Assembly (NCBI GenBank): GCA_050124835.1
Contig: JASFEM010000006.1
Coordinates: 6,110-70,109, forward strand
DNA length: 64,000 nucleotides
Reading direction: 5' to 3'
Source: Syntrophobacterales bacterium
GTDB taxonomy: Bacteria > Desulfobacterota > Syntrophobacteria > BM002
Shown here: in pieces, positions 1 to 61,290 of the stretch
How the letters are laid out: every line of letters starts with the position of its first letter
How positions within the stretch are numbered: position 1 is the first letter of the stretch
The notes under the pieces: model-generated
Databases searched by the model: none
The model's input: only the letters and a program-made list of their open reading frames with translations
Told to the model about the DNA's origin: nothing
Position numbers and translations under genes: made by a program

Positions 1-575
1 GACTCTGCGGAAGCCAGTGATTCCAAAACAATGTCGCAGACATCCAGGCCGGCGCGGTTGCAACATTTAACGATATTTTGGGCTGAGGTAACCGCGCCGG
101 TGACGATGTGAACCTTGGCCTCCATGCGCACCCCCGACATGCCCAGCGGGTTTTGTATGCCACCCTGGTCATCAATAATGTATTCCTGCGGAAGAATATG
201 AATAACCTCTCTGTCGAACGGTATCGCAACGGCCTTGGCAGCATCTATTACCCTGTCGATGTCTTGCTGGCTGACTTCACGGTTTTTTACGGCGATAACG
301 CCGTGGCTGTTATGCCCTTCGATATGCCCGCCGGCAATGCCGGCATAAACCGCGTTTATTTCGCAGCCTGCCATTAACTCGGCCTCTTCTACTGCCCGTT
401 TGATCGACTCCACTGTGCTCTCTATGTTGACCACCACACCTTTGCGCAGACCAACAGAGGGATGGGTGCCGATGCCAACTATGTCTATTCCCTCTGAGGT
501 CACCTCGCCAACCACGGCGCAAATCTTAGTGGTGCCGATATCAAGTCCTACGATCAATGATTCCTTCTTGGCCAT
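1..575 (-). CDS. ftsA: Cell division protein FtsA, N-terminal part (runs off window edge)
   Basis: Manual translation from ATG at 575: MAKKESLIVGLDIGTTKICAVVGEV...GLRKGVVVNIESTVDSIKRAVEEAELMAG, the FtsA N-terminus; directly downstream of ftsQ. Not in the ORF track. Confidence 0.95.
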   Translation of the reverse strand, partial: MAKKESLIVGLDIGTTKICAVVGEVTSEGIDIVGIGTHPSVGLRKGVVVNIESTVESIKRAVEEAELMAGCEINAVYAGIAGGHIEGHNSHGVIAVKNREVSQQDIDRVIDAAKAVAIPFDREVIHILPQEYIIDDQGGIQNPLGMSGVRMEAKVHIVTGAVTSAQNIVKCCNRAGLDVCDIVLESLASAE

Positions 576-577
576 CT

Positions 578-1405
578 TTACACCCCCCTTTGCTTACGGT
601 GGTCTCGTTGGAAAACCGGAAAGTTTCCCCTGACGAAAACCCTATTTCCGTGGCTAAGATCAATCCCCCGTAGCTTGGTGTGAACCCCCTTTTTCTCCAA
701 ATAGCTCAGCACCTTTTTAAGCCTGTCTATCCTGGGGCCGTAGTTACCGTTACCCAGGTCTACCTGAATTCCACCCTGGACAGTGAAGATGCTCAACCCC
801 GCATGGCTGTCCCAACGAATTTCCGAAATAAGTCGCCAGGGCAGTTTCAGCTGGCACTCTTTGTAGAGATCCTGGAAGAGTCCAGTAAACTTCCGGGGCA
901 GGTTAAGACCCGGACCCAAAGACTTCGGGTCGAGTCCGGTAATAATCGGCAAACCTCCATATTCGCCTGGCATCGCGCGAGTGAAACATATGCCCCGGGA
1001 ATCAATCAGGTAGAAGTGCTGCCCTTTGACCAGGGCAACAGGTTTGCGTTCCTCGATCTCTATGCGAATCCGGTCCGGGATCTCACGATTGATCAGGGCC
1101 GAGACTATCCAAGGATGGCTGGTGAGCCTCCGGCTAACACTATCCAGATCAAGAGATAGAATGTTGATGCCAGAAGGAATTCCAGCTTGCTGAATGACTG
1201 TTTGCGGGTCAAGCCGCTTCAAGCCGCTAACATTTATACTGGTGACCTGGAGCACAGGTGAGGTCAGCAGGGTGCGATAGACGCCAAAACAAAGCCCGCT
1301 CAGTAGCAAAAAACCGAGGCAGACAAAAAGGAACTGCAACCCCCAGCGTAGTATCCGGTACAACCTGCGCTCCTTCAGACGATACTTATTAAATTTGGCC
1401 ACCAT
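578..1405 (-). CDS. ftsQ: Cell division protein FtsQ/DivIB (POTRA)
   Basis: Basic N-terminus, one TM helix, POTRA-like segment (INVSGLKRL...WIVSALINREIPDRIRIEIEERKP), position just upstream of ftsA. Confidence 0.9.
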   Translation of the reverse strand: MVAKFNKYRLKERRLYRILRWGLQFLFVCLGFLLLSGLCFGVYRTLLTSPVLQVTSINVSGLKRLDPQTVIQQAGIPSGINILSLDLDSVSRRLTSHPWIVSALINREIPDRIRIEIEERKPVALVKGQHFYLIDSRGICFTRAMPGEYGGLPIITGLDPKSLGPGLNLPRKFTGLFQDLYKECQLKLPWRLISEIRWDSHAGLSIFTVQGGIQVDLGNGNYGPRIDRLKKVLSYLEKKGVHTKLRGIDLSHGNRVFVRGNFPVFQRDHRKQRGV

Positions 1406-1539
1406 ATTTATGAACTCAGTTTCATTCGAATCTGGGCAACCTGGTCCTTCCCCCGCATAATGGGATCTTCGACAGACCTGGGTTCTTTACTGGTCAGTTT
1501 GTTGTGTCCGTCCATAACCGCATTTGGCAGTGCGACCAG

Positions 1540-2460
1540 TTACGTCTTATTGTTGTTGCCAACGACTTCAATCTCCAGTTCGAGATTGACGCCAAATTTT
1601 TGTGAGACCTTCTCCTGTGCAAGGTTGATCAGAGCGAGAATATCGCGCGCTCGAGCTTGGCCGCGATTTACGATAAAGTTGGCATGCCGCATGGAAATCT
1701 CGGCGTCGCCGACGCGGGTGCCCTTCAAACCAGCTGCCTCAATGAGCCGACCGGCATAATCCCCTGGTGGGTTCTTGAAAACAGAACCAGCAGATGGTAG
1801 CTGCCATGGTTGTTTCTCCTTGCGTGCCTTGAGCAGCTGACGAAGCTGCTCTCTCATGTTTTCCCGAGAGCCAGGGGTAAGGGAAAACTCAGCCTCCAGC
1901 ACCACAGAGTCTGCTGGCAGTTCAAGTTTGCGATACGAGAAGCGGAGCTGAGCTCCTGATAGCCGAGTCAGGGAGCCATCAGAGAGAAGAAGGGCCACCT
2001 CTTGGCAGACATCGGCCATGACGCCTGCGTCGGTTCCAGCATTCATACGGAGAGCGCCCCCCACAGAGCCGGGTATGCCCACGATAAACTCGAGACCGCT
2101 GAGGCCCTCTCGCAAGCAGAAGCGGAGAAGCCCACGGAGCCTTAACCCGGCACCCACCTTTACCGTTCCTGAAGATCCCACTCGCTCCACCTGGGAAAAG
2201 CCACTCTCAAGGCTTATGGCTGCTGCGCGAATACCCGTATCGTGAACCAAAAGATTGGTTCCACGGCCAAGAATAAAGTGAGGGTAATGGTTTTGATTCA
2301 GTACCTGGACGGCGGACCGCAACCCTGCCAGACTTAGAGGACGAATTAGACAGGACACCGGCCCCCCTACCCGCAATGAGGTATGTCCTGCCAAAGTCAC
2401 ATTCCAGTCAACTTCCACACCGTCCAGGTACCGAAGCTGTTTTTTTAATTTAGAATCCAT
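1540..2460 (-). CDS. murB: UDP-N-acetylenolpyruvoylglucosamine reductase
   Basis: HTSLRVGG, GRGTNLL, GIPGSVGGALRMNAG, PSAGSVFKNP, HANFIVN motifs. Confidence 0.97.
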   Translation of the reverse strand: MDSKLKKQLRYLDGVEVDWNVTLAGHTSLRVGGPVSCLIRPLSLAGLRSAVQVLNQNHYPHFILGRGTNLLVHDTGIRAAAISLESGFSQVERVGSSGTVKVGAGLRLRGLLRFCLREGLSGLEFIVGIPGSVGGALRMNAGTDAGVMADVCQEVALLLSDGSLTRLSGAQLRFSYRKLELPADSVVLEAEFSLTPGSRENMREQLRQLLKARKEKQPWQLPSAGSVFKNPPGDYAGRLIEAAGLKGTRVGDAEISMRHANFIVNRGQARARDILALINLAQEKVSQKFGVNLELEIEVVGNNNKT

Positions 2461-2466
2461 TGTTTA

Positions 2467-2535
2467 TTTCGCATTAATCATTTCACATTTATCATTAATC
2501 TCGCCGCGTCAACGCGTCTTCGTGTCGCCGTGTCG
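2467..2535. repeat. Heptamer (TTWMKCA) array followed by octamer (CGCCGYGT-like) array
   Basis: tttcgca ttaatca tttcaca tttatca ttaatct, then cgccgcgt caacgcgt cttcgtgt cgccgtgt. Confidence 0.75.
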
Positions 2536-2569
2536 TTTTCAAATACAGACTAAACTTCGTTCATAGCTT

Positions 2570-3958
2570 TCAGCCTCCCTCTCTTTCCTGCAAGCGTTTG
2601 AGCAACTCTTCGCCCGTCTGCCAGACGTTTCCTGCGCCAAGGGTGAGGATCACATCACCCTCCTGTGCTTCGTTAACAAGCAGCGACACCAGGTCGATGT
2701 GGTCCGGAACATACCTGGTGTTGCCATGGCCGTGTTGCTGGATGGCCGCTGCTAGCTTTTCTGCATGGACCCCATGAATGGGCGGCTCACTGGCAGCGTA
2801 AATGTCAGTAACGATGAGAACGTCCGACTGGTAAAAGGCAGTGGTGAAGTCATCGAAAAGCGCGTGCGTGCGGGTGTAACGATGCGGCTGGAAGAGTACC
2901 AAGCGACGTCGGCCCGGATAGGACTGTGCTATGGTTTTCAGCACGGCCTTGATCTCGGTTGGATGGTGGCCATAGTCATCAATTATGGTGATGTCATTTA
3001 CCTCTCCCTTGATTTGAAAACGACGCTGCACTCCGGTCATTCCCTGAAGACCTCGACAAATAGCAGAGAAAGGGATCTCTAATTCGTGACCAACAGCCAC
3101 GGCTGCCAGGGAATTCAAGACATTGTGCCAGCCAGGAATTGGCAGATTAACCCTTCCCATTTCAGTGCCACGGTAGGCGGCTGTGTAAGAGCAGTTGAGT
3201 CCGTCAAAGGCCACATCACGTGCTTGAAAATCGGCCTGCGCCGAGAAGCCATAAGTGACAAGGCGTTTCTTGATCCGAGGGAGCAGGCTCTGAATGTTCT
3301 CATCTTCAAGACAGAGGATGTTGAGCCCATAGAACGGGACCTGGTTGATGAATTCAAGAAAAGTCTCACTGATCTCATTCAGGTCCTTGTAGTAATCAAG
3401 ATGTTCGGTATCAATATTGGTCACCAGGGAAATGGTCGGAGAATAAAGCAGAAATGTACCATCGCTTTCATCCGCTTCAGCCACCACAAAATCGCCTTGG
3501 CCGAGTTTTGCGTTGGTTCCCCAGGCGTTTAATCGACCCCCGATTACCACGGTAGGATCAAGGCCGCCCTCAGCCATCACCGTTCCCACCATGGAGGTGG
3601 TGGTCGTTTTGCCGTGAGCCCCAGCCACCAGTACTGCATACTTTAGCCGCATAAGTTCGGCGAGCATCTCGGCTCTCTTGATAACCGGTATATGGTAATC
3701 CTTTTCGGCCGCAACCACTTCAGGGTTGTCTGGGGCAACGGCGGATGAGACCACGGCAACTTCAGCGTCGGCTACGTGCTGACTCGCATGGCCGTAATAG
3801 ATCTTAGCCCCAAGAGTCTCGAGACGACGGGTAATTTCACTCTCAGTCAGGTCAGATCCACTTACCCGATGACCGATATTCAAGAGCAATTCAGCGATAC
3901 CACTCATACCGATGCCACCGATGCCAATGAAGTGAATATGGTAAGAACGCTTGTACAT
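2570..3958 (-). CDS. murC: UDP-N-acetylmuramate--L-alanine ligase
   Basis: IHFIGIGGIGMSGIA, GAHGKTTTT, EADESDG, DDYGHHPTE, FQPHRYTRT motifs. Confidence 0.98.
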   Translation of the reverse strand: MYKRSYHIHFIGIGGIGMSGIAELLLNIGHRVSGSDLTESEITRRLETLGAKIYYGHASQHVADAEVAVVSSAVAPDNPEVVAAEKDYHIPVIKRAEMLAELMRLKYAVLVAGAHGKTTTTSMVGTVMAEGGLDPTVVIGGRLNAWGTNAKLGQGDFVVAEADESDGTFLLYSPTISLVTNIDTEHLDYYKDLNEISETFLEFINQVPFYGLNILCLEDENIQSLLPRIKKRLVTYGFSAQADFQARDVAFDGLNCSYTAAYRGTEMGRVNLPIPGWHNVLNSLAAVAVGHELEIPFSAICRGLQGMTGVQRRFQIKGEVNDITIIDDYGHHPTEIKAVLKTIAQSYPGRRRLVLFQPHRYTRTHALFDDFTTAFYQSDVLIVTDIYAASEPPIHGVHAEKLAAAIQQHGHGNTRYVPDHIDLVSLLVNEAQEGDVILTLGAGNVWQTGEELLKRLQEREGG

Positions 3959-3963
3959 GAGTC

Positions 3964-3992
3964 AGTTTAGCCTGTTGTGCCGGTTTAGCCGG
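3964..3992. repeat. Nonamer array in the ftsW-murC gap
   Basis: agtttagcc tgttgtgcc ggtttagcc gg. Confidence 0.55.
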
Positions 3993-4021
3993 TCACAAAA
4001 ATCTGTGCACTTCAGTAAATT

Positions 4022-5212
4022 CTAGCCATTCCTTATCTTTTTCCTCCTGCCCGGACTGCCAGCCGACCAGTTTGCTTTGGCCGCGCTCTGTTCCTTGCCT
4101 CGGCTACTGATATTCAGGAGAATCCCAATGGCTGCCAGGTTGGTCAGCAGAGAACTACCACCGTAACTCATAAAGGGGAGCGGAAGCCCCTTGGTGGGCA
4201 GCAGGCCCATGACAACCGCACCGTTAATCAACGCCTGGAGGCCGATGACCATGGTCAAGCCGAAGGCCAGGTAGGTGCCGTAGCGGTTGGGTGCCCGTAA
4301 GGCGATTTTGATCCCTTTGTAGACCATCAAACCATAGAGCAAAAGAACAAAGGATACACCCACCAGACCGGTTTCTTCACCAATGACCGCCAAAATGAAA
4401 TCCGTATGCGCTTCAGGTAAATAAAAAAGCTTCTGCTGGCCGGAACCAAGACCAACTCCCAACGGACCGCCCGAGCCCAAGGCGAGCAACGAATGGAGCA
4501 GCTGAAAACTCGAATCGCTAGGATCCCGCCACGGATTGAGAAAGGCGAGCAATCTCTCCAAACGGTAACTAGTTTGGGCGATGGCCAGACCGAGAAGGGG
4601 AATCACTGCGATGCCGGTGGCAAAAAGATAGCGAGACCGCACGCCGCCGACAAAAAGCAGGAGAAAGACCAGGGTCGCGAAGGTTACAGCAGTGCCCAGG
4701 TCGGGTTGCATAACAACCAATCCGATAAAAAGCGCGGAAATCAGGAGGTGCGGCAGATAGCCTATGGAGAACTCTTGCACCCTATCGCCTTTTTTGGCCA
4801 AAGAATATGAGATGTAAATGATGAGGGCCAGTTTGGCGAATTCAGCAGGTTGCATAGAAATTGGGCCGAATCGAAGCCAGCGCCTAGCGCCCCCAACCCG
4901 GTGTCCCACTTGCGGCAGAAGCACGACGATGAGACTCAACAGACTCACCCCGAGGATGATGTAGACCAGGCGGCGGTACACTCCAAAGGGCAGATTCTTA
5001 CTGACGATGAGCACAGCGATGCCAATAAGGGCAAAAAGCATTTGTTTCTTGACAAAATACATACTATCGCCGTAACGCTGCTGAGCCATAATGGAACTGG
5101 AGCTGTAAAGCATAACGAGACCAATCCCCATCAGAGCCAAAGTGGTCAGCAACAGAACCAGATCGTAGCTGTTTCTATCCTCGCTTCTCACAGCCATAAG
5201 CCTTGACGCCAT
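4022..5212 (-). CDS. ftsW: SEDS peptidoglycan polymerase FtsW
   Basis: Multi-TM; GARRWL, QPAEFAKL, QPDLGT, LPEAHTDFI, LPFMSYGGSS motifs; dcw context. Confidence 0.96.
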   Translation of the reverse strand: MASRLMAVRSEDRNSYDLVLLLTTLALMGIGLVMLYSSSSIMAQQRYGDSMYFVKKQMLFALIGIAVLIVSKNLPFGVYRRLVYIILGVSLLSLIVVLLPQVGHRVGGARRWLRFGPISMQPAEFAKLALIIYISYSLAKKGDRVQEFSIGYLPHLLISALFIGLVVMQPDLGTAVTFATLVFLLLFVGGVRSRYLFATGIAVIPLLGLAIAQTSYRLERLLAFLNPWRDPSDSSFQLLHSLLALGSGGPLGVGLGSGQQKLFYLPEAHTDFILAVIGEETGLVGVSFVLLLYGLMVYKGIKIALRAPNRYGTYLAFGLTMVIGLQALINGAVVMGLLPTKGLPLPFMSYGGSSLLTNLAAIGILLNISSRGKEQSAAKANWSAGSPGRRKKIRNG

Positions 5213-5222
5213 TTGTCATAGT

Positions 5223-6653
5223 TCATTTGTGAGCATTCAGTTTTCTTTTGTCCCTGATAGAAGCTATCCAGGGACAACTGATACGATTATTCGTTTTCTC
5301 TTTTTCAGCGGCCAATTTGTGAACCAGAGCCCTGAAATGATCCCCCCGCTCTTGGTAGTTGTCGTAGAGATCAAAACTCGAACAAGCTGGAGAAAGCAGG
5401 ACCACATCGCCAGGGACGGCGGCGTCTAGAGCAACTGAAACTGCCGCGTCCATGTTGTCCACCACCACCGTGCAAGCGAGATTTCCCAGAGCCTTGGCCA
5501 ACCGAAATCGAGCTTCACCCATGAGCACAAGCATCTTCACCCGCTGGCGCACCAAGGCTGTGAGCGGTGCATAGGAGCCTTCCTTGTCACGACCGCCGGC
5601 CACAAGGATGATGGGTGAGGTGAAGCTTTCCAGGGAGCGCACCACTGAGTCCACGTTAGTGGCTTTGGAGTCGTTGTAAAACTGGATACCACGCCAGTGG
5701 TGAATAGGTTCCATGCGGTGCGGGAGTGTTTTGAAGTTGTCAATGGTCTCCTGAATAGCCTCAGGCTCACCACCCATACAGGTGGCCGCAAGTACTGCAG
5801 CCAGAAGGTTTTCTTGGTTGTGGCTACCAGCGAGTTGCCAGTGACGCAGATCATAGCGACGCGTCTGACCTGGCGCTATGCGGCAAACTATCCCACCCGA
5901 TTCCAGATGGGCGTGAGCTGAAGGTCTGGTCAAACTAAAGTGCAGCTGGGTACCGCGAATGGTACAGCGTGTGCTAATAAGGGGAGCATTGTCGGGAATT
6001 ATCGCGGTATCATCAACTGTCTGATTAGCAAAAAGTCGGCATTTGCTCGCCACGTAGTCTGAAAAAGAATGATAGCGATCCAAATGATCCTCACTGATAT
6101 TGAGGAGGACTGCAACCTGGGGGTGAAAGGTCTCCATGGAGTCAAGTTGGAAGCTGCTCACCTCAACGACCGCCATCTCGAACGTTTCCTTTTCTTGAAA
6201 AATTCCGATCAGCGGGTTGCCGATGTTTCCGCCCACGAAGACTTTCTGACCACTGTTCTTGAGCATGTCTCCCACTAATTCTGTGGTCGTGGTCTTGCCA
6301 TTGGTGCCGCCTATGGCCACAATGGGCAGCCGGAGAAAACGACAGGCGAGTTCCAGTTCTCCGATGATTGGCACACCTTTTCTTCTTGCTATTGACAATT
6401 GAGCCAAATCCAGGGGGATACCTGGACTGACAACTATGAGGTCCGCGGTGTTAAACAGTTCCGCAGGATGATCCCCCAGTGTCACGGAGCACCCAAGCTC
6501 GCGGGCACGATCCACCGCCGTACCAAGAGCCGTGGCGGGGAGCTGGTCGTTGATGGTAACGTGGGCACCCTTGTTCTGAAGGAACTCAGCCGCGGCAAGA
6601 CCACTGCGGGCCAGTCCCACGACCAAAACATTTTTATCCTTGAAGTTTTTCAT
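5223..6653 (-). CDS. murD: UDP-N-acetylmuramoyl-L-alanine--D-glutamate ligase
   Basis: VLVVGLARSG, GTNGKTTTT, GGNIG, EVSSFQL, NISEDHLDRY, NDSKATN, SPACSSFD. Start set to ATG 6653; the ORF-track start at 6722 lies inside a repeat array. Confidence 0.96.
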   Translation of the reverse strand: MKNFKDKNVLVVGLARSGLAAAEFLQNKGAHVTINDQLPATALGTAVDRARELGCSVTLGDHPAELFNTADLIVVSPGIPLDLAQLSIARRKGVPIIGELELACRFLRLPIVAIGGTNGKTTTTELVGDMLKNSGQKVFVGGNIGNPLIGIFQEKETFEMAVVEVSSFQLDSMETFHPQVAVLLNISEDHLDRYHSFSDYVASKCRLFANQTVDDTAIIPDNAPLISTRCTIRGTQLHFSLTRPSAHAHLESGGIVCRIAPGQTRRYDLRHWQLAGSHNQENLLAAVLAATCMGGEPEAIQETIDNFKTLPHRMEPIHHWRGIQFYNDSKATNVDSVVRSLESFTSPIILVAGGRDKEGSYAPLTALVRQRVKMLVLMGEARFRLAKALGNLACTVVVDNMDAAVSVALDAAVPGDVVLLSPACSSFDLYDNYQERGDHFRALVHKLAAEKEKTNNRISCPWIASIRDKRKLNAHK

Positions 6654-6705
6654 CACGATCTTAACAACTGCCATCTCAAGGCGATCGACATAAGACGTGG
6701 GATAA

Positions 6706-6754
6706 CCCATCTCGCATCCCACATCTCACATCCCATATCGACTTCTTACATCTC
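6706..6754. repeat. Heptamer array (CACATCY) in the murF-murD gap
   Basis: cccatct cgcatcc cacatct cacatcc catatcg; same unit recurs at 61208-61232. Confidence 0.75.
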
Positions 6755-6780
6755 CATTCAGATCCAGTTTTGCTCAGCTC

Positions 6781-8202
6781 TTATTCTCTCTCAGACTCAG
6801 CCAAAAGAATCTCCACTACCTTCTCCATTCGCATTCCCCTAGAACCCTTCACCAGCACCCAATCACCAGCAGCTATCAAACGCCGAACCCGCAAAGCCAT
6901 TTCCTGGTGATCGTTCGCTTGAGTCAAACATCCGCTGTCCATGCCGGCCTCAGCAGCGCCAGCAAGCAGATGAGAGGCCTGCGCACCCATGGCCAGAAGA
7001 TGATCAACCCCTTCTTTGGCTGCTATACTGCCAACCTGCCAGTGCAGGGTCGCAGTGTCCTCCCCCATTTCCAGCATGTCACCGAGGACTGCGAAAGCTC
7101 TCCCCTTCTTCTTCACTTTCATCAAGGTCTCCAGGGCAGCAGCTACGGAGCCGGGATTGGCATTGTAAGTATCATTAATGATATGTATGTCCTCAGGAAG
7201 AACGAGAATCTCCATGCGCTTGTCAACCGGGTGGAAATTTGCCAGGGCCTCGGCTATGGTACCTACCGGTAGGTTTAGGCTCCGAGCAACGGCTGCGGCT
7301 GCCACGGCGTTGTTGATATGGTGGCGGCCGATCACCGGCAGGTAGATTTCGTAGCTTTCTTTCGCTACTTTCAGAAGGAACCGACTCCCATTTGCATCTA
7401 TGGCGAGAATCCGCTCGAGTGCTACCTCCCCATTGGCTCCAGCTGCGGAAAAGCTCACCTGACGACCAGGGAACGAAGAGGCCAGGTCGAGGACTCTAGG
7501 ATCGTCCCGGTTGACCACGATGGTCGCGGTCGCTGCCATACCCGCGAAGAGTTCGCCCTTAGCGGCCTGAATTCCCGCGAGGCTTCCAAGTCCCTCAAGG
7601 TGGGCTGGCTGAATATTGGTAATGAGGCCCACATCTGGACGGACGATTTCGGTCAACCGCTGGATTTCTCCTGGTTGATTCATTCCCAGCTCTACCACCG
7701 CTCCCTGGTGGGTGTCGTCAAGTTGCAGCAAGGTAAGCGGCAACCCCACCAGGTTATTAAAGGTTCCCTCGTTTTTTAAAACCTTCCAGGATCTACTGAA
7801 AATAGCAGCAACCATCTCTTTTGTAGTGGTTTTGCCATTGGAACCGGTTATCGCCACCACGGGGACAGGGTGACGGCGGCGCCAGTAGCCGGCCAGATCT
7901 CCAAGAGCATGAAGGGTATCACCCACCCCAACAACTGAGACCTGAAGTTCCTGAACCGCAAGTCTCTCTGTCTCGTCCAGAGCCACAATGAGGCCAGTTG
8001 CCCCGCCGCTTACCGACTGTTCCACAAACTGGTGCCCATCAAAGGTTTCTCCCTTTAGGGCTATAAATAGTTCTCCCGGACGCAGCGTGCGGCTGTCGGT
8101 GGAAATCCCGACAAAACGTTGCTCTCCACCTGTTGCCAAAAGCTCACCGCCAGTTGCTTCCAGGACCATATCGAGTGTCCATATGTACTTGTCATTGGTC
8201 AT
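6781..8202 (-). CDS. murF: UDP-MurNAc-tripeptide--D-Ala-D-Ala ligase
   Basis: STDSRT, GETFDGH, ITGSNGKTTTKEM, ELGMNQPGEI, NDTYNANP, LGDMLEMG, KGSRG motifs. Confidence 0.97.
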   Translation of the reverse strand: MTNDKYIWTLDMVLEATGGELLATGGEQRFVGISTDSRTLRPGELFIALKGETFDGHQFVEQSVSGGATGLIVALDETERLAVQELQVSVVGVGDTLHALGDLAGYWRRRHPVPVVAITGSNGKTTTKEMVAAIFSRSWKVLKNEGTFNNLVGLPLTLLQLDDTHQGAVVELGMNQPGEIQRLTEIVRPDVGLITNIQPAHLEGLGSLAGIQAAKGELFAGMAATATIVVNRDDPRVLDLASSFPGRQVSFSAAGANGEVALERILAIDANGSRFLLKVAKESYEIYLPVIGRHHINNAVAAAAVARSLNLPVGTIAEALANFHPVDKRMEILVLPEDIHIINDTYNANPGSVAAALETLMKVKKKGRAFAVLGDMLEMGEDTATLHWQVGSIAAKEGVDHLLAMGAQASHLLAGAAEAGMDSGCLTQANDHQEMALRVRRLIAAGDWVLVKGSRGMRMEKVVEILLAESERE

Positions 8203-8222
8203 CAGCTAGTAGTTCTTAGTTC

Positions 8223-9773
8223 CTAGTGCTTTTCTGTTTGGCGTTTCCTTCTCTCCTCTAGCGCTTCGGTTGCCACAAGGCGATCATCGAAGTCAATGCG
8301 TTTGTCGCCGAGAATCTGGTAATTCTCATGACCCTTGCCGCCGATATAAACGACATCCCCTTCACCAGCGCAATCGATTGCCTGCCGGATGGCTTTGGAA
8401 CGGTCCACCACCAGGGTGTAGCCGCGATGGCAGTTGTTCCTACATTCGGCAAGGGAAGAGAGCAGGGGGAGACCTTGTCCACGAACGCCAGCTTCAATGT
8501 CGGCCATGATGGTCTCGGGCACTTCACTCCTGGGGTTGTCAGAGGTAATCACCACTAAATCGGCACGCAGCGCTGCTGCCTCTCCCATGAGGGGACGTTT
8601 GCCACGATCGCGATCTCCACCACAGCCAAATACGCAGATGATCTTTCGGAACTGAAGCTCTCTCAGGGAGTCCAGAGCCTTTTCCAGGGCATCCGGAGTG
8701 TGGGCATAGTCCACGAGAACCTGGAAACCCATGTCGTTTGGAACGGCCTCTAGACGCCCAGGAACTCGAGCCAGAGATTGCTCCCCGCGACTGATTGCCT
8801 CCAGGGAAAGTCCGAGGCCCACTGCCACTGAGGTGGCTGCAAGAAGATTGTAAAGATTCAATCGACCAAGCAGAGATGAATGCACCTGCAGTAAACCCAC
8901 AGGGGTATGCAGCTGGGCTTGAATGCCGGAAGAGTCGCACTGAACCGTGTCGGCTCGAATCTCAGCGTCGGCTGCCATGCCGTAGCGAAGAAGTGGACCG
9001 TCGATCTGCGAGCAAAGTCGTCGGCCCCAATCATCGTCGATATTGACGACGGCGAGGGCTTGAGCATCTCCATTTTGCTGAAGAATCTGAGAAAACAGTC
9101 GGCTTTTGGCCCCAAAATACTTCTCCATACTGCCGTGATAATCTAGATGATCCTGGGAAAGATTGGTGAAAAGACCCACGGCAAAGCGGGTTCCATCCAC
9201 CCGGTGCATGTCTAGGCCATGTGAAGAGACCTCCATAACCACGTGGGTAACTCCTGCATCCAGCATTTTTCTGAGGTTCTGCTGCAGATCGAGAGACTCC
9301 GGGGTAGTAACTGGTGCCGGACGAAGATGGCCTGGATATCGAATGTTGACAGTACCTATAACCCCAACCTGCAACTCGCAGGCTTCGAGGATTGACTCGA
9401 GCAGGTAGGCGGTGGTGGTTTTTCCGTTGGTTCCGGTGATGCCGATGACCGTGAGTCCATGAGAAGGAAAACCGTAAAATCGGTTTGATATGCGAGCGAG
9501 AGCAGTTCTGGTGTTGGGCACCTCAATGGTTGTCACGCCTGGCACAGGGTCGAGTGGTTTCTCCACTACGAGGCTATGGGCGCCCCGCTCTATTGCTTGA
9601 CCGATAAAGTCATGGCCATTACTCTGGGTGCCCTTAATGGCGACAAAGAGGCTGCCTTCGCCGACCTGCCCACTGTGGTAAGCGACACCCTTCACCTCAC
9701 GCTGCAGTTCACCGTGCAAATGCACTATGGAAAGATCCTGAACCAGATGTTCCAGCTGCATGCGTCTCCTCAC
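8223..9773 (-). CDS. murE: UDP-MurNAc-dipeptide--meso-DAP ligase
   Basis: ITGTNGKTTT, MEVSSHG, TNLSQDHLDYH, VDYAHTPDAL, GCGGDRD, DNPR (meso-DAP-type motif), GKGHE. Confidence 0.97.
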   Translation of the reverse strand: MRRRMQLEHLVQDLSIVHLHGELQREVKGVAYHSGQVGEGSLFVAIKGTQSNGHDFIGQAIERGAHSLVVEKPLDPVPGVTTIEVPNTRTALARISNRFYGFPSHGLTVIGITGTNGKTTTAYLLESILEACELQVGVIGTVNIRYPGHLRPAPVTTPESLDLQQNLRKMLDAGVTHVVMEVSSHGLDMHRVDGTRFAVGLFTNLSQDHLDYHGSMEKYFGAKSRLFSQILQQNGDAQALAVVNIDDDWGRRLCSQIDGPLLRYGMAADAEIRADTVQCDSSGIQAQLHTPVGLLQVHSSLLGRLNLYNLLAATSVAVGLGLSLEAISRGEQSLARVPGRLEAVPNDMGFQVLVDYAHTPDALEKALDSLRELQFRKIICVFGCGGDRDRGKRPLMGEAAALRADLVVITSDNPRSEVPETIMADIEAGVRGQGLPLLSSLAECRNNCHRGYTLVVDRSKAIRQAIDCAGEGDVVYIGGKGHENYQILGDKRIDFDDRLVATEALEERRKRQTEKH

Positions 9774-9778
9774 TAATC

Positions 9779-11779
9779 TTAATCTGCCACCAGGATAAGG
9801 CTACATGAATCAACCGTGCTAAGATTGCTGCCCGGTTCAGGATTCTGTCCCACCACCCGGCCGCAGCCGTGAATGTCTAAGGAGCCAGTAAAATTTCGCA
9901 GCTTGTCAAGAGCAGCTCTAAGGCTGAGCCCAGTGAGGTCAGGCATCGCCAGCTTATGGTCGCTGTCTATCTGGTCATACGCTACCGGCTGTAGAGCCGT
10001 CAGCCGTTTTTGCATTTGGGGGTCGGTGCTGTCCCGCCCTGCAATGCTCTTGGCCTTGTTCTTAATCTTTTCGGGAGGTAGCTGGAGGGCGTGAAGAGTT
10101 TGCTGGGCGATACGACGAAAAGCAGGTGCTGCCACCACACCACCGTGGAACCCCTTTTGAGGTTCGTTGATCACCACAACAACAAGGATTTTTGGATCCG
10201 TCACAGGTACAAAACCAACAAAGGAAGCGGTGTAAAGATCCTCCGAGTATCCACCACTCTGTCGATTGCTTCTCTGGGCAGTTCCGGTCTTGCCAGCCAC
10301 CTGATATTGCGCGAGCGCGGCCTTAGCGCCTGTACCTCCTGGGGAGATAACATCAGCTAGCAGCTGCTTCATACGTTGGGCGGTGTCCGCACTGATCACA
10401 CGACGAACCACCCGGGACTTGTTCCGCCCGACGACTTTACCTCGCGCGTCCAGCACTTCTTTAACGAGCAAAGGTTGCATCAGAAGGCCATCGTTGGCCA
10501 CAACACCTAGGGCGGTGGCGAGTTGTATGGCGGATACTGAAAGGCTTTGTCCAAAACTGGCGGCGGCAAGGTCCACGGTTGACCACTGCTCAGGAGGACG
10601 GATCAAGCCGGAGGTTTCACCCGGCAAGCCAATACCGGTGGCTTTGCCGAAGCCGAAGGAGCGAATGTAGTGGTAAAAACGGTTCGAACCCAATTTTTCC
10701 CCAACTTTGGCAGCGCCAATGTTACTGGAATAACGAAGGATATGAGCTAGAGAGAGCCAGCCAAATTTACGCAGATCATGGATCGTGTGGTTCAGCACCC
10801 GGTAACTGCCCTGCTCGCAGAAAAACAGGTCATCTGGATGAACCAATTTCTCTTCCAAAGCTGCCGCCACCAGAAATATCTTGAAGGTGGACCCCGGTTC
10901 AAAAGCATCAGTCACTGCACGGTTTCGCCAAGAGGAGGGGCGATAAGAGGAAAAAGAATTGGGGTTGAATGACGGAAAAACTGCCATGGCCAGAATCTCG
11001 CCCGATTCCGGTTCCATCACTATAGCGGTACCGCTTTTCGCCTGGTGACTGCGTACTGTCTCCTGCAGTTCCCTTTCCGCGATGTACTGGATACGTTTGT
11101 CCAGGGTGAGTCTGAGGCTGTACCCCTGGGGATCGGATTCGGCAGGCAGCCCCTGGGTGTAAATTATTTGACCTCGCGCGTCCTTGGTTCCGGGATGAGT
11201 GTCAGAATTGCCGCGCAATAGAAGATCCATGGAAGTTTCCAATCCCTCGAGACCGTGATGTTCTCTGCCAACGAATCCGATTACGTGGCCCGCGAGTTCT
11301 ACATTCGGGTAATAACGGCGGTCCTCTTTGACAAAGTGGATTCCCTCGAGATCAAGCGCCCTAACCTCATCGACCTGTCGAGGAGTGAGGTAGTGTTTTA
11401 GCCAGACGAAAGCTCGAGGCTGACTCAACTTTTCTACCAGTTTCGGAACAGGGACCTTGATGGCAGCAGTGAGTTGTCGAGCCGTGGCTGCGGGATTCTT
11501 TATGACTCGCGGGTTGGCGGCCAGGGATTCCATCTCAATGCTTACAGCCAACTCTTGCCCGTTTCGGTCGTATATATCTCCTCGCTTTGGCTCAAAGAGG
11601 AGACTTCTCCTGATCTGGTTGTTGGCAACGCTTGACCAACCCTCCGATTGAAAAAACTGAATCTGGAAGCTCCTGGCTATCAGTAGCGCGAAGCCCACGA
11701 GCAGCCCCCCAGCCACTAGAATGACCCGGAGCTTGATCCAGCGAACCTCAGGATTGTGAGAGCGGGGCTTAGGTGTCAT
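9779..11779 (-). CDS. ftsI: Class B penicillin-binding protein FtsI/PBP3 with C-terminal PASTA-like domain
   Basis: RGDIYDRNG, RYYP, GLEGLE, EPGSTFK (SxxK), YSSN (SxN), GKTGTAQ (KTG); C-terminal MPDLTGLSLRAAL. Confidence 0.95.
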   Translation of the reverse strand: MTPKPRSHNPEVRWIKLRVILVAGGLLVGFALLIARSFQIQFFQSEGWSSVANNQIRRSLLFEPKRGDIYDRNGQELAVSIEMESLAANPRVIKNPAATARQLTAAIKVPVPKLVEKLSQPRAFVWLKHYLTPRQVDEVRALDLEGIHFVKEDRRYYPNVELAGHVIGFVGREHHGLEGLETSMDLLLRGNSDTHPGTKDARGQIIYTQGLPAESDPQGYSLRLTLDKRIQYIAERELQETVRSHQAKSGTAIVMEPESGEILAMAVFPSFNPNSFSSYRPSSWRNRAVTDAFEPGSTFKIFLVAAALEEKLVHPDDLFFCEQGSYRVLNHTIHDLRKFGWLSLAHILRYSSNIGAAKVGEKLGSNRFYHYIRSFGFGKATGIGLPGETSGLIRPPEQWSTVDLAAASFGQSLSVSAIQLATALGVVANDGLLMQPLLVKEVLDARGKVVGRNKSRVVRRVISADTAQRMKQLLADVISPGGTGAKAALAQYQVAGKTGTAQRSNRQSGGYSEDLYTASFVGFVPVTDPKILVVVVINEPQKGFHGGVVAAPAFRRIAQQTLHALQLPPEKIKNKAKSIAGRDSTDPQMQKRLTALQPVAYDQIDSDHKLAMPDLTGLSLRAALDKLRNFTGSLDIHGCGRVVGQNPEPGSNLSTVDSCSLILVAD

Positions 11780-12096
11780 GGCAGCACTACAATTTGCTCC
11801 TTGGTTGGGTGCCTTAGGCCCAGCTGTTGGATGGCAATGCGCTCCACGCGCTCAGGGGCCTTAAGTCTGGCCAGCTCCAAGTGCAGCTTCTTGTTATCAT
11901 TCAACAATTGGGTGTGTATCCGGTGAACGTCGGACAGCAAATAGCCCAAATGAACGACCTGAACCCGGCACCAGACATAGCCAAAACCACTCAAGAGAAG
12001 CCATACAAAAACGGCCACGGTTGCGAATATCCGGCGATTTTTCAAGGCCTGCTTTGCAGACTTACTGGCTGTCTTTTTTCTTGGTTTCTTGCTCAT
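11776..12096 (-). CDS. ftsL: Cell division protein FtsL
   Basis: Basic N-terminus, one TM helix, coiled coil ending RVERIAIQQLGL; lies between rsmH and ftsI. Confidence 0.88.
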   Translation of the reverse strand: MSKKPRKKTASKSAKQALKNRRIFATVAVFVWLLLSGFGYVWCRVQVVHLGYLLSDVHRIHTQLLNDNKKLHLELARLKAPERVERIAIQQLGLRHPTKEQIVVLP

Positions 12097-13045
12097 TTAT
12101 CTTTTCCACCACCCGCAAACGGCCACTTCTGGCTCTAGGATTTACCTTTATCTCATCAGCCCCTGGCAGCACGGGCCTTTTGCGAATCAACCGAGCCAGG
12201 GCCTTTCTTTCACAACTACAAACCGGCGAGTCTGTCGGGCAGCGGCATGAACGCGCCCAGCTGGCGAAAGTCTGCTTCACCAGCCGATCCTCCAGGGAAT
12301 GAAAAGAGATGATAGCCAGCCGACCACCTGGCCGGAGCCAATCAAGAGCTTCCTGGAGGAAGGCCCGCAGATTATCAATTTCCCGATTCACTGCCAGCCG
12401 TAAGGCCTGAAAAGTGCGAGTGGCCGGATGGATTTTTCGTGACCTTTTGCCTGGTGGAACGGCAGCGACTACCAGCTTGGCTAAACGCTCAGTCGTGTCA
12501 ATAGTCGCTTCAGCCCTGGCCCTGACAATGTTTCGGGCAATTCTCCGACTCCAGCGCTCTTCTCCTAAACACCGGATGAGCTCAGCCAGTTCCTTCTCAC
12601 TCAGGTTGTTAACCAGTTCGGCAGCGGTGGTCCTACCACTGGTATTCATGCGCATGTCCAGCGGACCAGACTGGCTGAAGCTAAAGCCTCGTTCGGCTGC
12701 ATCCACCTGGAAAGAAGATAAACCTAAATCGAGGAGGATGCCGTCCACCGCTTGGACCTGCAGCCTGCGTAGAATTGATCCCATTCGGGCGTAGTTGTCA
12801 CAAACCAAAACGAGCCGTTCCGAATAGGATTGCAGGTTTAGCCGCGCCTGGCTCAGGGCATTTTCGTCCCAGTCGATACCGATTAATCGGCCATCGGGCG
12901 CGGTCTTTTCCAAGATGGCCCGGGCGTGACCACCACCGCCCAAGGTGCCATCCACATAATGTTTTCCAGGGGCGCAGCGCAAAAGCTCGACCACTTCAAA
13001 AAGAAGAACCGGCTTGTGCTCAAGCTGCTTGGCTGCGCTCATCAC
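12062..13045 (-). CDS. rsmH: 16S rRNA m4C1402 methyltransferase RsmH (MraW)
   Basis: HKPVL, YVDGTLGGGGH, DLGLSSFQ, PLDMRM, HPATRTFQALR, ISFHSLEDR, NPRARS motifs. Confidence 0.98.
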   Translation of the reverse strand: MMSAAKQLEHKPVLLFEVVELLRCAPGKHYVDGTLGGGGHARAILEKTAPDGRLIGIDWDENALSQARLNLQSYSERLVLVCDNYARMGSILRRLQVQAVDGILLDLGLSSFQVDAAERGFSFSQSGPLDMRMNTSGRTTAAELVNNLSEKELAELIRCLGEERWSRRIARNIVRARAEATIDTTERLAKLVVAAVPPGKRSRKIHPATRTFQALRLAVNREIDNLRAFLQEALDWLRPGGRLAIISFHSLEDRLVKQTFASWARSCRCPTDSPVCSCERKALARLIRKRPVLPGADEIKVNPRARSGRLRVVEKINEQETKKKDSQ

Positions 13046-13198
13046 CGGACAAAGTCATCCCAAATTTGATCCCGCATCAGACAATGTGATGTGGGGATTA
13101 CTTACAGATTACCTTGGAAAACCCAGTAGGGCCGTTTCAGACATTATCCGCCGTTGGCAGTTACTTCGGCGGAGCTATGACGGCTCAGCCCATTGGAC

Positions 13199-13349
13199 TG
13201 ACGCGGGGACGGGGAGAAGCGGCAACGTAGAGTAGAATTGGTCTGCGCTGTTCATATGTTTTGATCCGTGATGCCCCAAATGTCTTTGCCCACCATTGGT
13301 TTTTGGGTTAAGGTTAACTCTGTTACCGCTTCTCCGCGTCCCCGCGTCA
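13199..13349. repeat. MITE-like element: 28-bp inverted arms (2 mismatches) built from octamers, 95-bp core
   Basis: TGACGCGGGGACGGGGAGAAGCGGCAAC (13199-226) versus reverse complement of 13322-349. Confidence 0.85.
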
Positions 13350-13448
13350 TGAAGGGGTAGAGGGAGGATCACAATGCTACCTCCCTTCCAGCCGCTTTAA
13401 AATCAATGACTAAAATTTGAAATTGTGTTAGTGTCATTTTCCCTGTTC

Positions 13449-13889
13449 TTAGATACCGAGCTCGGCGAGGGTCGAAGTGATCTGGGAGAAGTTTTCGTGG
13501 GATCTTTTTATTTCGTCATCCCACATTGGCTTGCTCCAGATTTCAAAACTTTTAACCATGCCGGCCAGTACCACTTCACGCTCAAGTGAAGCGTGTTCTC
13601 GCAGGGTCGGAGGAATCAAAACTCTTCCCTGCTTATCAAAGTTGCACTCAATGGCGCCGGAAATGAAAAAGCGCTGAAACGCCTTAACGTCCTGGCGAAC
13701 TAATGAGAGCTCTCCTAATTTTTCTTCGATTTTTTCCCACTCTTGAAGGGGATAGGCAATCAGGCAGCGGTCGTAATTGGTGATGATAAAACGGTCATTG
13801 TAGAGGCTCTTGAGGATCTCCCGAAACCGTGAAGGAATGCGGATACGTCCCTTGGCATCCAGGGTATGTACTGAACGGCCCCTGAACAT
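13449..13889 (-). CDS. mraZ: Division/cell-wall cluster transcriptional repressor MraZ
   Basis: MFRG...LDAKGRIRIP and DKQGRVLIP duplicated AbrB-like motifs; first gene of the dcw cluster. Confidence 0.96.
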   Translation of the reverse strand: MFRGRSVHTLDAKGRIRIPSRFREILKSLYNDRFIITNYDRCLIAYPLQEWEKIEEKLGELSLVRQDVKAFQRFFISGAIECNFDKQGRVLIPPTLREHASLEREVVLAGMVKSFEIWSKPMWDDEIKRSHENFSQITSTLAELGI

Positions 13890-13915
13890 GCACACCCCAT
13901 AAAGTTATTGGATTG

Positions 13916-13980
13916 ACACTTTTGACCACTTATTACCACTTCTTGACACCACTTATACAGATGCCACCACAAAAAGTCAA
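13916..13980 (-). promoter_or_regulatory. dcw promoter (TTGACT-N17-TATAAG) with MraZ-type GTGG direct repeats
   Basis: Minus strand -35 at 13975-13980, -10 at 13952-13957; AGTGG/AGTGT boxes at 13949-53, 13936-40, 13926-30, 13916-20, the last three at 10-nt period. Confidence 0.75.
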
Positions 13981-14115
13981 TAAAAAAACAAAATCAACGG
14001 ATTAGAGCAGCTTTCCCGCCACACCACAGCCTCGACTTGATATCAATATATAGAATAATCAGCCCATAAACAACTACATTATGTGGCAATTGCCCCATCG
14101 TAGGTCTAATAAATT

Positions 14116-15195: not shown

Positions 15196-15485
15196 GGTAA
15201 ACGGTGAACAGTGAACGGTGAACAGTGAACGGTAAACGAAACAGATACCCATTTTTTAAATCCGAAATCCGCAATCCGCAATCCCAAATCCGCAATCCCC
15301 AGCACTAAATGCCTAAAACATACTGAAGTCTGCAATCTACAGTCTCCATTCTGCCCTCTGCTTCTGATCTCCGACCTCCGACTTCTGACCTCTTTCTGCT
15401 GCCCGCTGCAAGCTGCCTGCTGTCTTTTGCCCCAAGGCAGAAACTTTTTTCGCCGCGTCTCCTTATCACCGTGTCCCCGCGTCGT
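15196..15485. repeat. Composite cassette of several short-unit arrays
   Basis: (RGTGAAC)x6, linker, (TCCGCAA)x5, then CTGACYT, GCTGC and octamer modules. Confidence 0.85.
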
Positions 15486-17577: not shown

Positions 17578-17680
17578 GTCATTGGTCATTTGACATTTCT
17601 CATCTGGCATTGATCATTGGGCTTCAAATATTAAATGCTCAATGTGAAATGCTCAATGCGAAATGTGAAATGATAAATGT
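17578..17680. repeat. Inverted pair of heptamer arrays (nnCATTK / MAATGnn)
   Basis: Six left units and seven right units around a 13-nt spacer between ald and the DUF2156 gene. Confidence 0.8.
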
Positions 17681-23309: not shown

Positions 23310-23462
23310 ACGGATTGCGGATTGCAGATTTTAGATTTTAGATTGCAGATTTAAGAATTTCGGGTTTGGGATTTCGGATTGCGAATTTCGAATTTAAGAA
23401 AAGGTATCTGTTCCCTTGACCCTTGACCCTTCACTCTTCACGATTCACCCCTCACCCCTTAC
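23310..23462. repeat. Composite heptamer cassette between hemL and atp
   Basis: Long (GATTKCR) array, linker TTAAGAAAAGGTATCTGTTCC, then (CCTTGAC/CCTTCAC) array. Confidence 0.85.
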
Positions 23463-37255: not shown

Positions 37256-37371
37256 GAAGCTCTCCTCCTATACTTCGGACCTAATTCTTAAGAGTTCTGG
37301 ATTTTGCAACGCAGGCATAATACTCCAGTCCCCACAAATTGTCTAGGTAGAAGCATAGAGCATGGGGCTAG

Positions 37372-37640
37372 ACCATTTCGGATTTCGGATTTCGGATTGC
37401 GGATTTAAAAAAGGGCATCTGTTCCGTTTACCGTTCACTGTTCAGCTCTCACCAGAGGGATTTCGGATTTTGAAACTATAAATAGTGATCTCTGCCCTCT
37501 GATCTATGACTTCTGATCTCTAATCTTTTCTAATCCCCGTTTCGCCGTTGCTCCCAATCCCCGTGTCATTCCGCTGTGCCTAGTGCTTAGTTCCTAGTGC
37601 CTAGTTGCAACGGCTGCCAGTTGCACGCTGCCAGCTGGTT
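37372..37640. repeat. Composite cassette, copy A
   Basis: Same module order as 57445-57780; first 73 nt differ at only 2 positions. Confidence 0.9.
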
Positions 37641-57410: not shown

Positions 57411-57444
57411 TGTTGATTCCAAATTACTGAAGGCATAGAGCTAT

Positions 57445-57780
57445 ACCATTTCGGATTTCGGATTTCGGATTGCGGATTTTAAAAAGGGTATCTGTTCCGT
57501 TTACCGTTCACTGTTCACCTTTGACCCGCGGGAGTTGGGATTTCGGATTTTGAAATTATAAATAGTGATCTCCGTTCTCTGATCTCTGACCTCTATCGTC
57601 CGCCCTTTAATCCCCTTCTCGCCGTTTCTCCCCGCCCCCGTGCCTGCCCGCCATCGGCTTCGCCTTCAGGCGAGGCGGGCGGGTCGTCCCGCTGTGCCTA
57701 GTGCTTAGTCCCTAGTGCCTAGTTTTCAATGCTGCCAGCTGCTGGCTGTCTGCTGCAAGCTGGGCAAAGGCCTTGCGCCT
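57445..57780. repeat. Composite cassette, copy B, with an inserted hairpin
   Basis: Homologous to 37372-37640, plus a GC hairpin at 57643-57683. Confidence 0.9.
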
Positions 57781-61118: not shown

Positions 61119-61290
61119 AATGCCTAAAATGCCTAAAGTGAGCTAAATTGTCTAAAATGCCTAAAGCACAAAAGATGTGTGATGTGGGATAAAGCCCTGT
61201 TTCCGTAGCATCTCACATCTCATATCTCACATCCGCAATCCGCAATCCGCAATCGTCAATGCCCCATGCTCTTTACCCTATGCCCAATGG
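61119..61290. repeat. Composite cassette: 9/10-mer CTAAA array, CACATCT array, TCCGCAA array
   Basis: atgcctaaaatgcctaaagtgagctaaattgtctaaaatgcctaaag; tctcacatctcatatctcac; atccgcaatccgcaatccgcaat. Confidence 0.85.

Follow-up and report, generated by a model that had tools for sequence, protein, structure and literature searches.

The window analysed here, a stretch of 64,000 nucleotides from a Syntrophobacterales bacterium (assembly GCA_050124835.1, contig JASFEM010000006.1, called C6 in the following), carries a division and cell wall (dcw) gene cluster on its minus strand. This cluster lacks mraY, murG and ddl. For mraY and murG the absence is a lineage-level relocation into a second conserved locus, where MurG is encoded as the middle part of a single polypeptide that begins with MurJ and ends with a domain of HEAT repeats. 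We consider it highly probable that the dcw cluster has kept the soluble Mur enzymes together with FtsW and FtsI, and that the lipid-linked steps belong to a coupled module at the second locus, i.e. the fusion protein and MraY. We found no published description of a MurJ-MurG-HEAT fusion paired with mraY.

The gene order in the window, read from six-frame open reading frames (ORFs) and Pfam matches, is mraZ-rsmH-ftsL-ftsI-murE-murF-murD-ftsW-murC-murB-ftsQ-ftsA (Table 1). The murF-murD, ftsW-murC and murB-ftsQ spacers are too short to hold the missing genes, and neither mraY, murG or ddl nor remnants of them were found there. A previous interpretation of the same DNA from its letters alone, hereafter the sequence-only reading, had described the cluster as devoid of genes for MraY, MurG and Ddl. 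Its coordinates (murF stop at 6781, ftsW stop at 4022, murC start at 3958, a murB-ftsQ gap of 134 bp) are correct, and the ORFs and Pfam matches agree with the description. The E. coli-type cluster has the order mraZ-rsmH-ftsL-ftsI-murE-murF-mraY-murD-ftsW-murG-murC-ddlB-ftsQ-ftsA-ftsZ. The remaining genes, from mraZ to ftsA, have the same order and orientation in the window, which differs by the lack of mraY, murG and ddl and by the presence of murB. In the canonical cluster mraY and murG are not adjacent, whereas at the second locus they are, and in the reversed order with murG before mraY. The relocation was therefore not the excision of one block.

The layout of the dcw cluster is not an assembly artefact, because the window is collinear with the chromosome of a closed relative. 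Our main reference was the single-contig genome CP070735.1 (G012), labelled 'Deltaproteobacteria bacterium bin40'. Window positions 1-14000 align to it at about 96% nucleotide identity, and the murF-murD spacer is the only stretch that cannot be aligned. The ORF order in this reference is rsmH-(ftsL)-ftsI-murE-murF-murD-ftsW-murC-murB-ftsQ-ftsA. In two other single-contig genomes (G002 and G018) and in other families of the class, the Mur-ligase matches are spaced like those of the window, and mraY and murG are found at distant loci or on separate contigs. The sequence-only reading had reckoned with a misassembly, which this collinearity contradicts, and also with an ordinary relocation shared by the relatives. 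One half of the latter stands: the layout is common to every relative in the class, with an ordinary mraY elsewhere, but their murG is not ordinary.

The fusion protein and the mraY gene

The source assembly, a metagenome-assembled genome of an uncultured bacterium, has 3.97 Mb in 287 contigs, with an estimated completeness of 96% and a contamination of 3.2%. Profile searches for MraY, MurG and Ddl beyond the window, which the sequence-only reading had called for, found all three elsewhere in this genome. The mraY gene is located at C194:14-1120, with its start 16 bp from the contig end, and is the sole match to Glycos_transf_4 (PF00953) in the assembly. Its product scores 308.2 bits with TIGR00445 (equivalog cut-off 192.05, model positions 3-321 of 321) and 108.6 bits with PF00953, and it contains the MraY_sig1 signature. 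Judged by these profiles, it is a bona fide MraY. There are three GT28_C matches in the assembly, one inside an ORF on contig C252 and two on contig C11. The ORF on C252 also holds the only MurJ-family match and the only full-length MurG match of the genome. The two ORFs on C11 were ruled out as MurG, as they score 32-37 bits with TIGR01133 against a cut-off of 250, match in the C-terminal part only and have no GGTGGH loop. No Amj flippase was found in the genome. The ddl gene is present as a single stand-alone copy at C2:47875-48807 (NF002378, 355 bits, cut-off 243), i.e. it is an ordinary gene, in line with the earlier view that its absence from the cluster is less unusual. It adjoins dnaA in divergent orientation (C2:45686-48807), and the hyp genes are beside it.

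The ORF on C252 runs from base 3577 to base 2 and is open at the contig end. The complete fusion protein of the closed relative has 1,199 residues (L017:7594-11193, minus strand). Residues 12-512 correspond to MurJ (TIGR01695, 275.5 bits against 235.55; PF03023, 255.8 bits), residues 528-918 to MurG (PF03033 and PF04101, 94.6 and 87.6 bits against cut-offs of 26.2 and 22), and residues from about 940 to 1192 to HEAT repeats, a domain of about 260 residues (HEAT_2, 44 bits). In the MurG part the motifs GGTGGH, GGYVS, HEQN and GGSQGAR, as well as the E and Q of the donor site for UDP-N-acetylglucosamine, align with E. coli MurG (1F0K), and all of these are invariant across 66 homologues. In the MurJ part the motifs SRV, FLR, ATD, RR and QRL, the last of them in transmembrane (TM) helix 8, align with SRV and FAR (within SRVLGFAR), ATD, RR and DRL of E. 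coli MurJ. These E. coli motifs carry the essential central-cavity arginines R18, R24, R52 and R270.

The hydropathy scan was ambiguous with regard to the number of TM helices, and the count was taken from an AlphaFold2 model built with the alignment of the 66 homologues (mean predicted local distance difference test score, pLDDT, 81.9). In the model, 14 long helices take up the chain as far as residue 520 or so, and the first MurG strand is at residue 529. It further shows two Rossmann-like halves and, from about residue 940, an alpha-solenoid with a pLDDT of about 90. Foldseek matched it to MurJ 7WAW (TM-score 0.86 on the target, 512 columns) and to MurG 3S2U (TM-score 0.85). Both termini of MurJ are cytoplasmic, which fits the matched structures, and the MurG and HEAT parts would therefore lie in the cytoplasm. 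The model is consistent with both being tethered there via TM helix 14 of MurJ. The HEAT domain is of the PBS-lyase/alphaRep type and matches alphaRep structures with E-values down to 2e-20. Its conservation is much the same as that of the catalytic domains: dozens of residues, among them W988, R991, N992, R1038-N1040, D1065, W1136, Q1137 and R1139, are invariant in 66 sequences that go down to 50% identity; in other words, the repeat type is that of the known scaffolds, but the conservation of its residues is far higher than in a generic scaffold. Judged from sequence and model, the fused protein looks functional.

Compared with the separate MraY, MurG and MurJ of E. coli (1F0K, 3S2U, 6CC4, 7WAW), the folds, the catalytic or essential residues and the three consecutive lipid-linked steps are the same. 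The arrangement is different: E. coli MurG is a product separate from the other two and sits at the membrane periphery without an anchor, whereas here it would be tethered via TM helix 14 of MurJ. What we see is a transporter of 14 TM helices in one chain with the glycosyltransferase that produces the transported lipid, and a HEAT domain, which is not an enzyme, in addition.

At the second locus of the closed relative, purD, purE and tsaC are followed by murJ-murG-HEAT, a spacer of 214 bp and mraY (L017:6273-7379). After mraY there are genes for a HAMP-cyclase, a LysM-deacetylase and a TPR-LysM protein, and the same genes are present on C194. Contig C252 matches L017:7617-11581 and C194 matches 7379-1213, each with a nucleotide identity of about 95%, and by this alignment the two contigs are neighbours. 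The gap between them corresponds to about 237 bp in the closed relative, i.e. the last seven or so codons of the fusion and a repeat-rich spacer. This spacer (L017:7380-7600) contains GAGGAAT four times and an inverted copy, and our assembly breaks exactly there; the repeats and their inverted copies are the likely reason for the break in the short-read assembly. The predicted RNA fold of the spacer was no better than that of shuffled sequences (z = -0.64) and gives no ground for proposing an attenuator. On the chromosome of the closed relative the module is about 0.41 Mb away from the dcw cluster.

The sequence-only reading had proposed that the two genes were relocated together, fused or replaced. 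A joint relocation is what we find, murG being directly upstream of mraY at the second locus of the closed relative. Fusion applies to MurG, which has MurJ at its N-terminal and the HEAT domain at its C-terminal side, and not to mraY, which is a separate gene. Replacement does not hold, as the profile scores speak for a bona fide MraY and MurG.

Distribution of the module and of related fusions

The class sample consisted of 61 genomes that the depositors had labelled Syntrophobacteria, Syntrophobacterales or Syntrophobacteraceae. A murG(-HEAT) gene is immediately followed by mraY in 60 of them. The full MurJ-MurG-HEAT fusion occurs in three families, f1 (to which our genome belongs), f2 and f4. 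In the sister families f3, f5 and f6 we find a MurG-HEAT protein of about 720 residues with its own N-terminal TM helix, and a MurJ-like protein is encoded elsewhere. The position of tsaC upstream of the module is conserved in three families. In an even sample of the phylum a MurG-linked HEAT domain was detected in 24 of 401 genomes, i.e. in the class and in families f30, f46 and f105; in f46 murG-HEAT and mraY are again adjacent. In many of 150 phylum genomes mraY lies in a read-through frame of about 830 residues. We read these frames as mraY beside murF, and most of the sampled phylum genomes thus appear to keep the canonical position.

The unfused MurG-HEAT proteins of the sister families (L020:6747-8897, L021:5229-7397) begin with one TM helix, which is followed by a stop-transfer motif of the RWRR type. 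MurG is thus predicted to be membrane-anchored in these families even without MurJ, by a TM helix of its own and unlike the E. coli enzyme. This helix may be a remnant of TM helix 14 of MurJ: the juxtamembrane RWRR and YWGRFR segments line up between the two, but they leave the direction of the change undecided. The free MurJ-like proteins of the sister families are very distant from the fused MurJ, with IPDFINYLLAG in place of LPNLLRRI and no RR motif. In a MurJ tree, which is unrooted, has long branches and includes one mis-picked ORF (row G105), the fused clade groups with the free MurJ of f30 and f27 and not with the MurJ-like proteins of the sister families. Several species of the genus have a second, free MurJ paralogue (e.g. 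G002:C1:282713-284029) that is about 33% identical to the fused MurJ, and none was found in our genome or in the closest closed relative.

A profile-free, exhaustive search of 1.84 billion representative proteins returned collinear MurJ-MurG-HEAT proteins at 31-36% identity (e.g. P0127, P0131, P0137 and P0143), one cluster of which is labelled 'Candidatus Aminicenantes'. It also returned a permuted fusion of 1,191-1,333 residues with MurG first (1-390), then MurJ (about 530-990) and a C-terminal HEAT domain. The permuted order is supported by Pfam in P0128, P0134, P0154 and P0176, the HEAT repeats of the last being below threshold. In the three genomic contexts inspected, a MraY-family gene is directly downstream of the fusion, with a gap of 1 bp in P0128, an overlap of 4 bp in P0154 and an overlap of 8 bp in the Aminicenantes protein P0277. 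The permuted fusions among them (loci L077:6001-11053 and L082:6001-10664) are from metagenomic lineages, and about 140 residues separate their MurG and MurJ parts.

Interpretation and alternative explanations

If the proposed module exists, the fusion protein and MraY would perform the housekeeping functions of making lipid I and lipid II and of flipping lipid II. The fusion may hand lipid II from MurG directly to MurJ and in this way shorten or channel the transfer. The HEAT domain could serve as a docking surface, most plausibly for MraY, the gene of which nearly always comes next. This would amount to a hard-wired lipid II module, the expression of which is uncoupled from the dcw operon. 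Coupling is suggested because the steps are consecutive, the domains are fused in two orders, mraY is a nearly constant neighbour and the HEAT domain is strongly conserved.

A number of points weigh against this proposal. It is from gene fusion and adjacency alone that we infer a physical coupling of the last membrane steps. The MurG domain scores 220 bits with TIGR01133, below the equivalog cut-off of 250.25, with model positions 6-353 of 353 covered, and its C-terminal domain has an insertion in the alignment with E. coli MurG (1F0K). The predicted template modelling score of the AlphaFold2 model is 0.56, i.e. the model is no reliable guide to how the three domains are placed relative to one another. 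In our own assembly no sequence joins C252 to C194, and the fusion lacks its last seven or so codons. Within the genus the spacer between the fusion and mraY has about 70-260 bp and is rich in repeats, the two genes are not translationally coupled, and no promoter or terminator signal of the module exceeded the shuffled sequences in the closed relative. Finally, the adjacency of the HEAT-bearing gene and mraY is not universal: in f30 they are apart, and neither has dcw neighbours.

The most serious alternative is a plain relocation without functional meaning, i.e. a neutral move in which the fusions to MurJ and HEAT are tolerated accidents and the domains work as independently as they do in E. 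coli. We regard it as unlikely, although it has several facts on its side. The content of the dcw cluster varies by lineage, and natural chimeras of Mur enzymes that are not consecutive in the pathway are known (PMC10214165). The passage of the lipid between the separate E. coli proteins has been explained by affinity gradients (PMC9046198). Moreover, the sister families live with an unfused MurG-HEAT and a free MurJ-like protein, and the pair is split in f30. On the other hand, three domains fused in two orders, in at least two differently labelled phyla and with each sampled fusion directly before mraY, are hard to obtain by chance. The neutral account also has to face a HEAT domain as conserved as the catalytic domains in the 66 sequences, and the fact that MurG and MurJ act consecutively on the same lipid. 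The chimeras surveyed in PMC10214165, namely MurE-MurF, MurC-Ddl, MurC-MurB, MurG-MurC, MurD-FtsW and MraY-MurG, were taken there as evidence for a multi-enzyme complex. The fusion resembles them in that precursor enzymes are joined in one polypeptide, but MurJ-MurG is not among the types listed.

Two further explanations seem far less probable. According to one, the fusion and MraY make or export another undecaprenyl-linked glycan, and the genuine enzymes for lipid II are either lacking or non-orthologous. The insertion and the sub-threshold TIGR01133 score of MurG would fit this, the GT4 and MOP families do include members outside peptidoglycan synthesis, and an alternative MurG-like enzyme is known from actinomycetes (PMC8092295). 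Nevertheless we hold it to be very improbable: MraY passes its equivalog model and carries MraY_sig1, the substrate-binding motifs of MurG are conserved, the genome has no second GT4, MurJ or full-length MurG match, and the rest of the peptidoglycan pathway, which needs these steps, is intact (MurB-F, FtsW and FtsI in the window, and Ddl). According to the other, mraY and murG were lost from the cluster by a collapse or misjoin, or C194 and C252 are contaminants. The fragmentation and estimated contamination of the assembly, and the position of mraY and the fusion at the ends of contigs of just 6.2 kb and 4.0 kb, would allow such an error. It is nonetheless hardly credible, since G012, G002 and G018 are single-contig genomes with the same dcw order (the ORF order was read directly in G012 only) and have the fusion and mraY on the same chromosome. 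Both contigs are nearly as close to G012 as the window is (about 95% against about 96%), the GC contents of C194 (0.51) and C252 (0.53) are near that of C6 (0.51), and the same murG-mraY pair is found throughout the class sample but for one genome.

The coupled module thus remains our preferred reading. A more far-reaching version of it is tentative, and we think it could well be wrong: MurG, MurJ, HEAT and MraY would form an assembled 'lipid II factory' that has replaced the dcw-embedded mraY and murG in at least two phyla. Here the HEAT domain would dock MraY or the last soluble ligase, and lipid I would pass to the tethered MurG, from which lipid II would enter the cytoplasmic gate of the attached MurJ. 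If this is true, the same coupling would have been reached independently in two domain orders, each with mraY behind it, and the fusion would provide genetic evidence from nature that lipid II passes from MurG to MurJ.

By itself the gap in the dcw cluster is a class-wide relocation of modest interest, and it is the fusion that bears on how lipid II is handed over to the flippase. It is debated whether lipid I and lipid II are transferred by free diffusion along affinity gradients or within a complex. A conserved polypeptide of synthase and flippase offers a 'Rosetta stone' argument for a direct hand-over, which gains weight from the recurrence of the fusion in two domain orders, each beside mraY. 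MraY, MurG and MurJ are antibiotic targets. The fusion is also a ready-made stoichiometric object for structural work, e.g. cryo-EM on a MurG-MurJ unit together with MraY. Moreover, the dcw cluster, often held to be nearly invariant, can lose just the two genes for the membrane steps, and lose them as a functional unit. Automatic names such as 'MurJ', 'glycosyltransferase' or 'MurG' hide the fusion architecture, and completeness tools that seek murG and mraY inside the dcw cluster would report both as missing.

No paper on a 'MurJ-MurG' or 'MurG-MurJ' fusion was found, subscription-only papers being outside the coverage of the search, and the searchable literature gave nothing relevant on a MurG-attached HEAT domain or on MurG in Syntrophobacter. 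A paper on the evolution of the dcw cluster (PMC8871954) does not mention the MurJ-MurG-HEAT architecture.

The dcw cluster of the window and its spacers

The features of the cluster are collected in Table 1. The length of the murF-murD spacer depends on the start of murD: with the GTG at 6722 it is 58 bp, with the ATG at 6653 it is 127 bp. One of two ATG codons, at 6653 or 6674, is probably the true start; the similarity of murD to its relatives begins at residue 23, around the ATG at 6653. The PASTA domain of FtsI scores 27 bits (Pfam cut-off 23.2). PASTA domains are more usual in penicillin-binding proteins (PBPs) and kinases of Gram-positive bacteria.

Table 1. Genes of the dcw cluster and the spacers at the canonical sites of mraY, murG and ddl (window coordinates)
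Feature	Position	Strand	Evidence
mraZ, first gene of the cluster	13449-13895	-	Pfam MraZ, 122.6 bits
rsmH (mraW)	12062-13045	-	Pfam Methyltransf_5, 384 bits
ftsL	11776-12096	-	Pfam FtsL, 29.5 bits (cut-off 22.9)
ftsI, class B PBP with C-terminal PASTA	9779-11779	-	Pfam Transpeptidase, PBP_dimer, PASTA
murE	8223-9773	-	three Mur ligase domains; identity by position and order
murF	6781-8202	-	three Mur ligase domains; identity by position and order
murF-murD spacer, canonical mraY site	6723-6780	.	heptamer array 6708-6739
murD	5223-6722	-	Pfam MurD-like_N, Mur_ligase_M, Mur_ligase_C
ftsW	4022-5212	-	Pfam FTSW_RODA_SPOVE, 369 bits
ftsW-murC spacer, canonical murG site, 63 bp	3959-4021	.	ORF listing
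murC	2570-3958	-	three Mur ligase domains
murB	1540-2460	-	Pfam MurB_C, FAD_binding_4
murB-ftsQ spacer, canonical ddl site, 134 bp	1406-1539	.	ORF listing
ftsQ	578-1405	-	Pfam POTRA_1, FtsQ_DivIB_C
ftsA, 5' part, truncated by the window edge	3-575	-	Pfam SHS2_FTSA, FtsA

Tandem repeats with a period of 7 nucleotides, in 3-7 copies and with many different units, are common in the intergenic spacers of the window. Such heptamer arrays are found at 6708-6739, 15196-15310, 17578-17679, 23311-23459, 37375-37634, 57448-57723 and 61209-61254, among others. A strict count gave seven arrays of period 7 and three of period 14 (twice the heptamer); the other periods from 4 to 15 gave none or one each, and shuffled sequences gave none. 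In the closed relative the heptamer array of the murF-murD spacer is replaced by a different repeat, GGTCAYY. Moreover, an intergenic block of 163 nucleotides occurs twice, at 37360-37522 and 57433-57595, i.e. 20 kb apart, with 80% identity between the copies. Both copies are built from one common series of heptamer arrays, namely ATTTCGG, TGATCTC and GTGCCTA.

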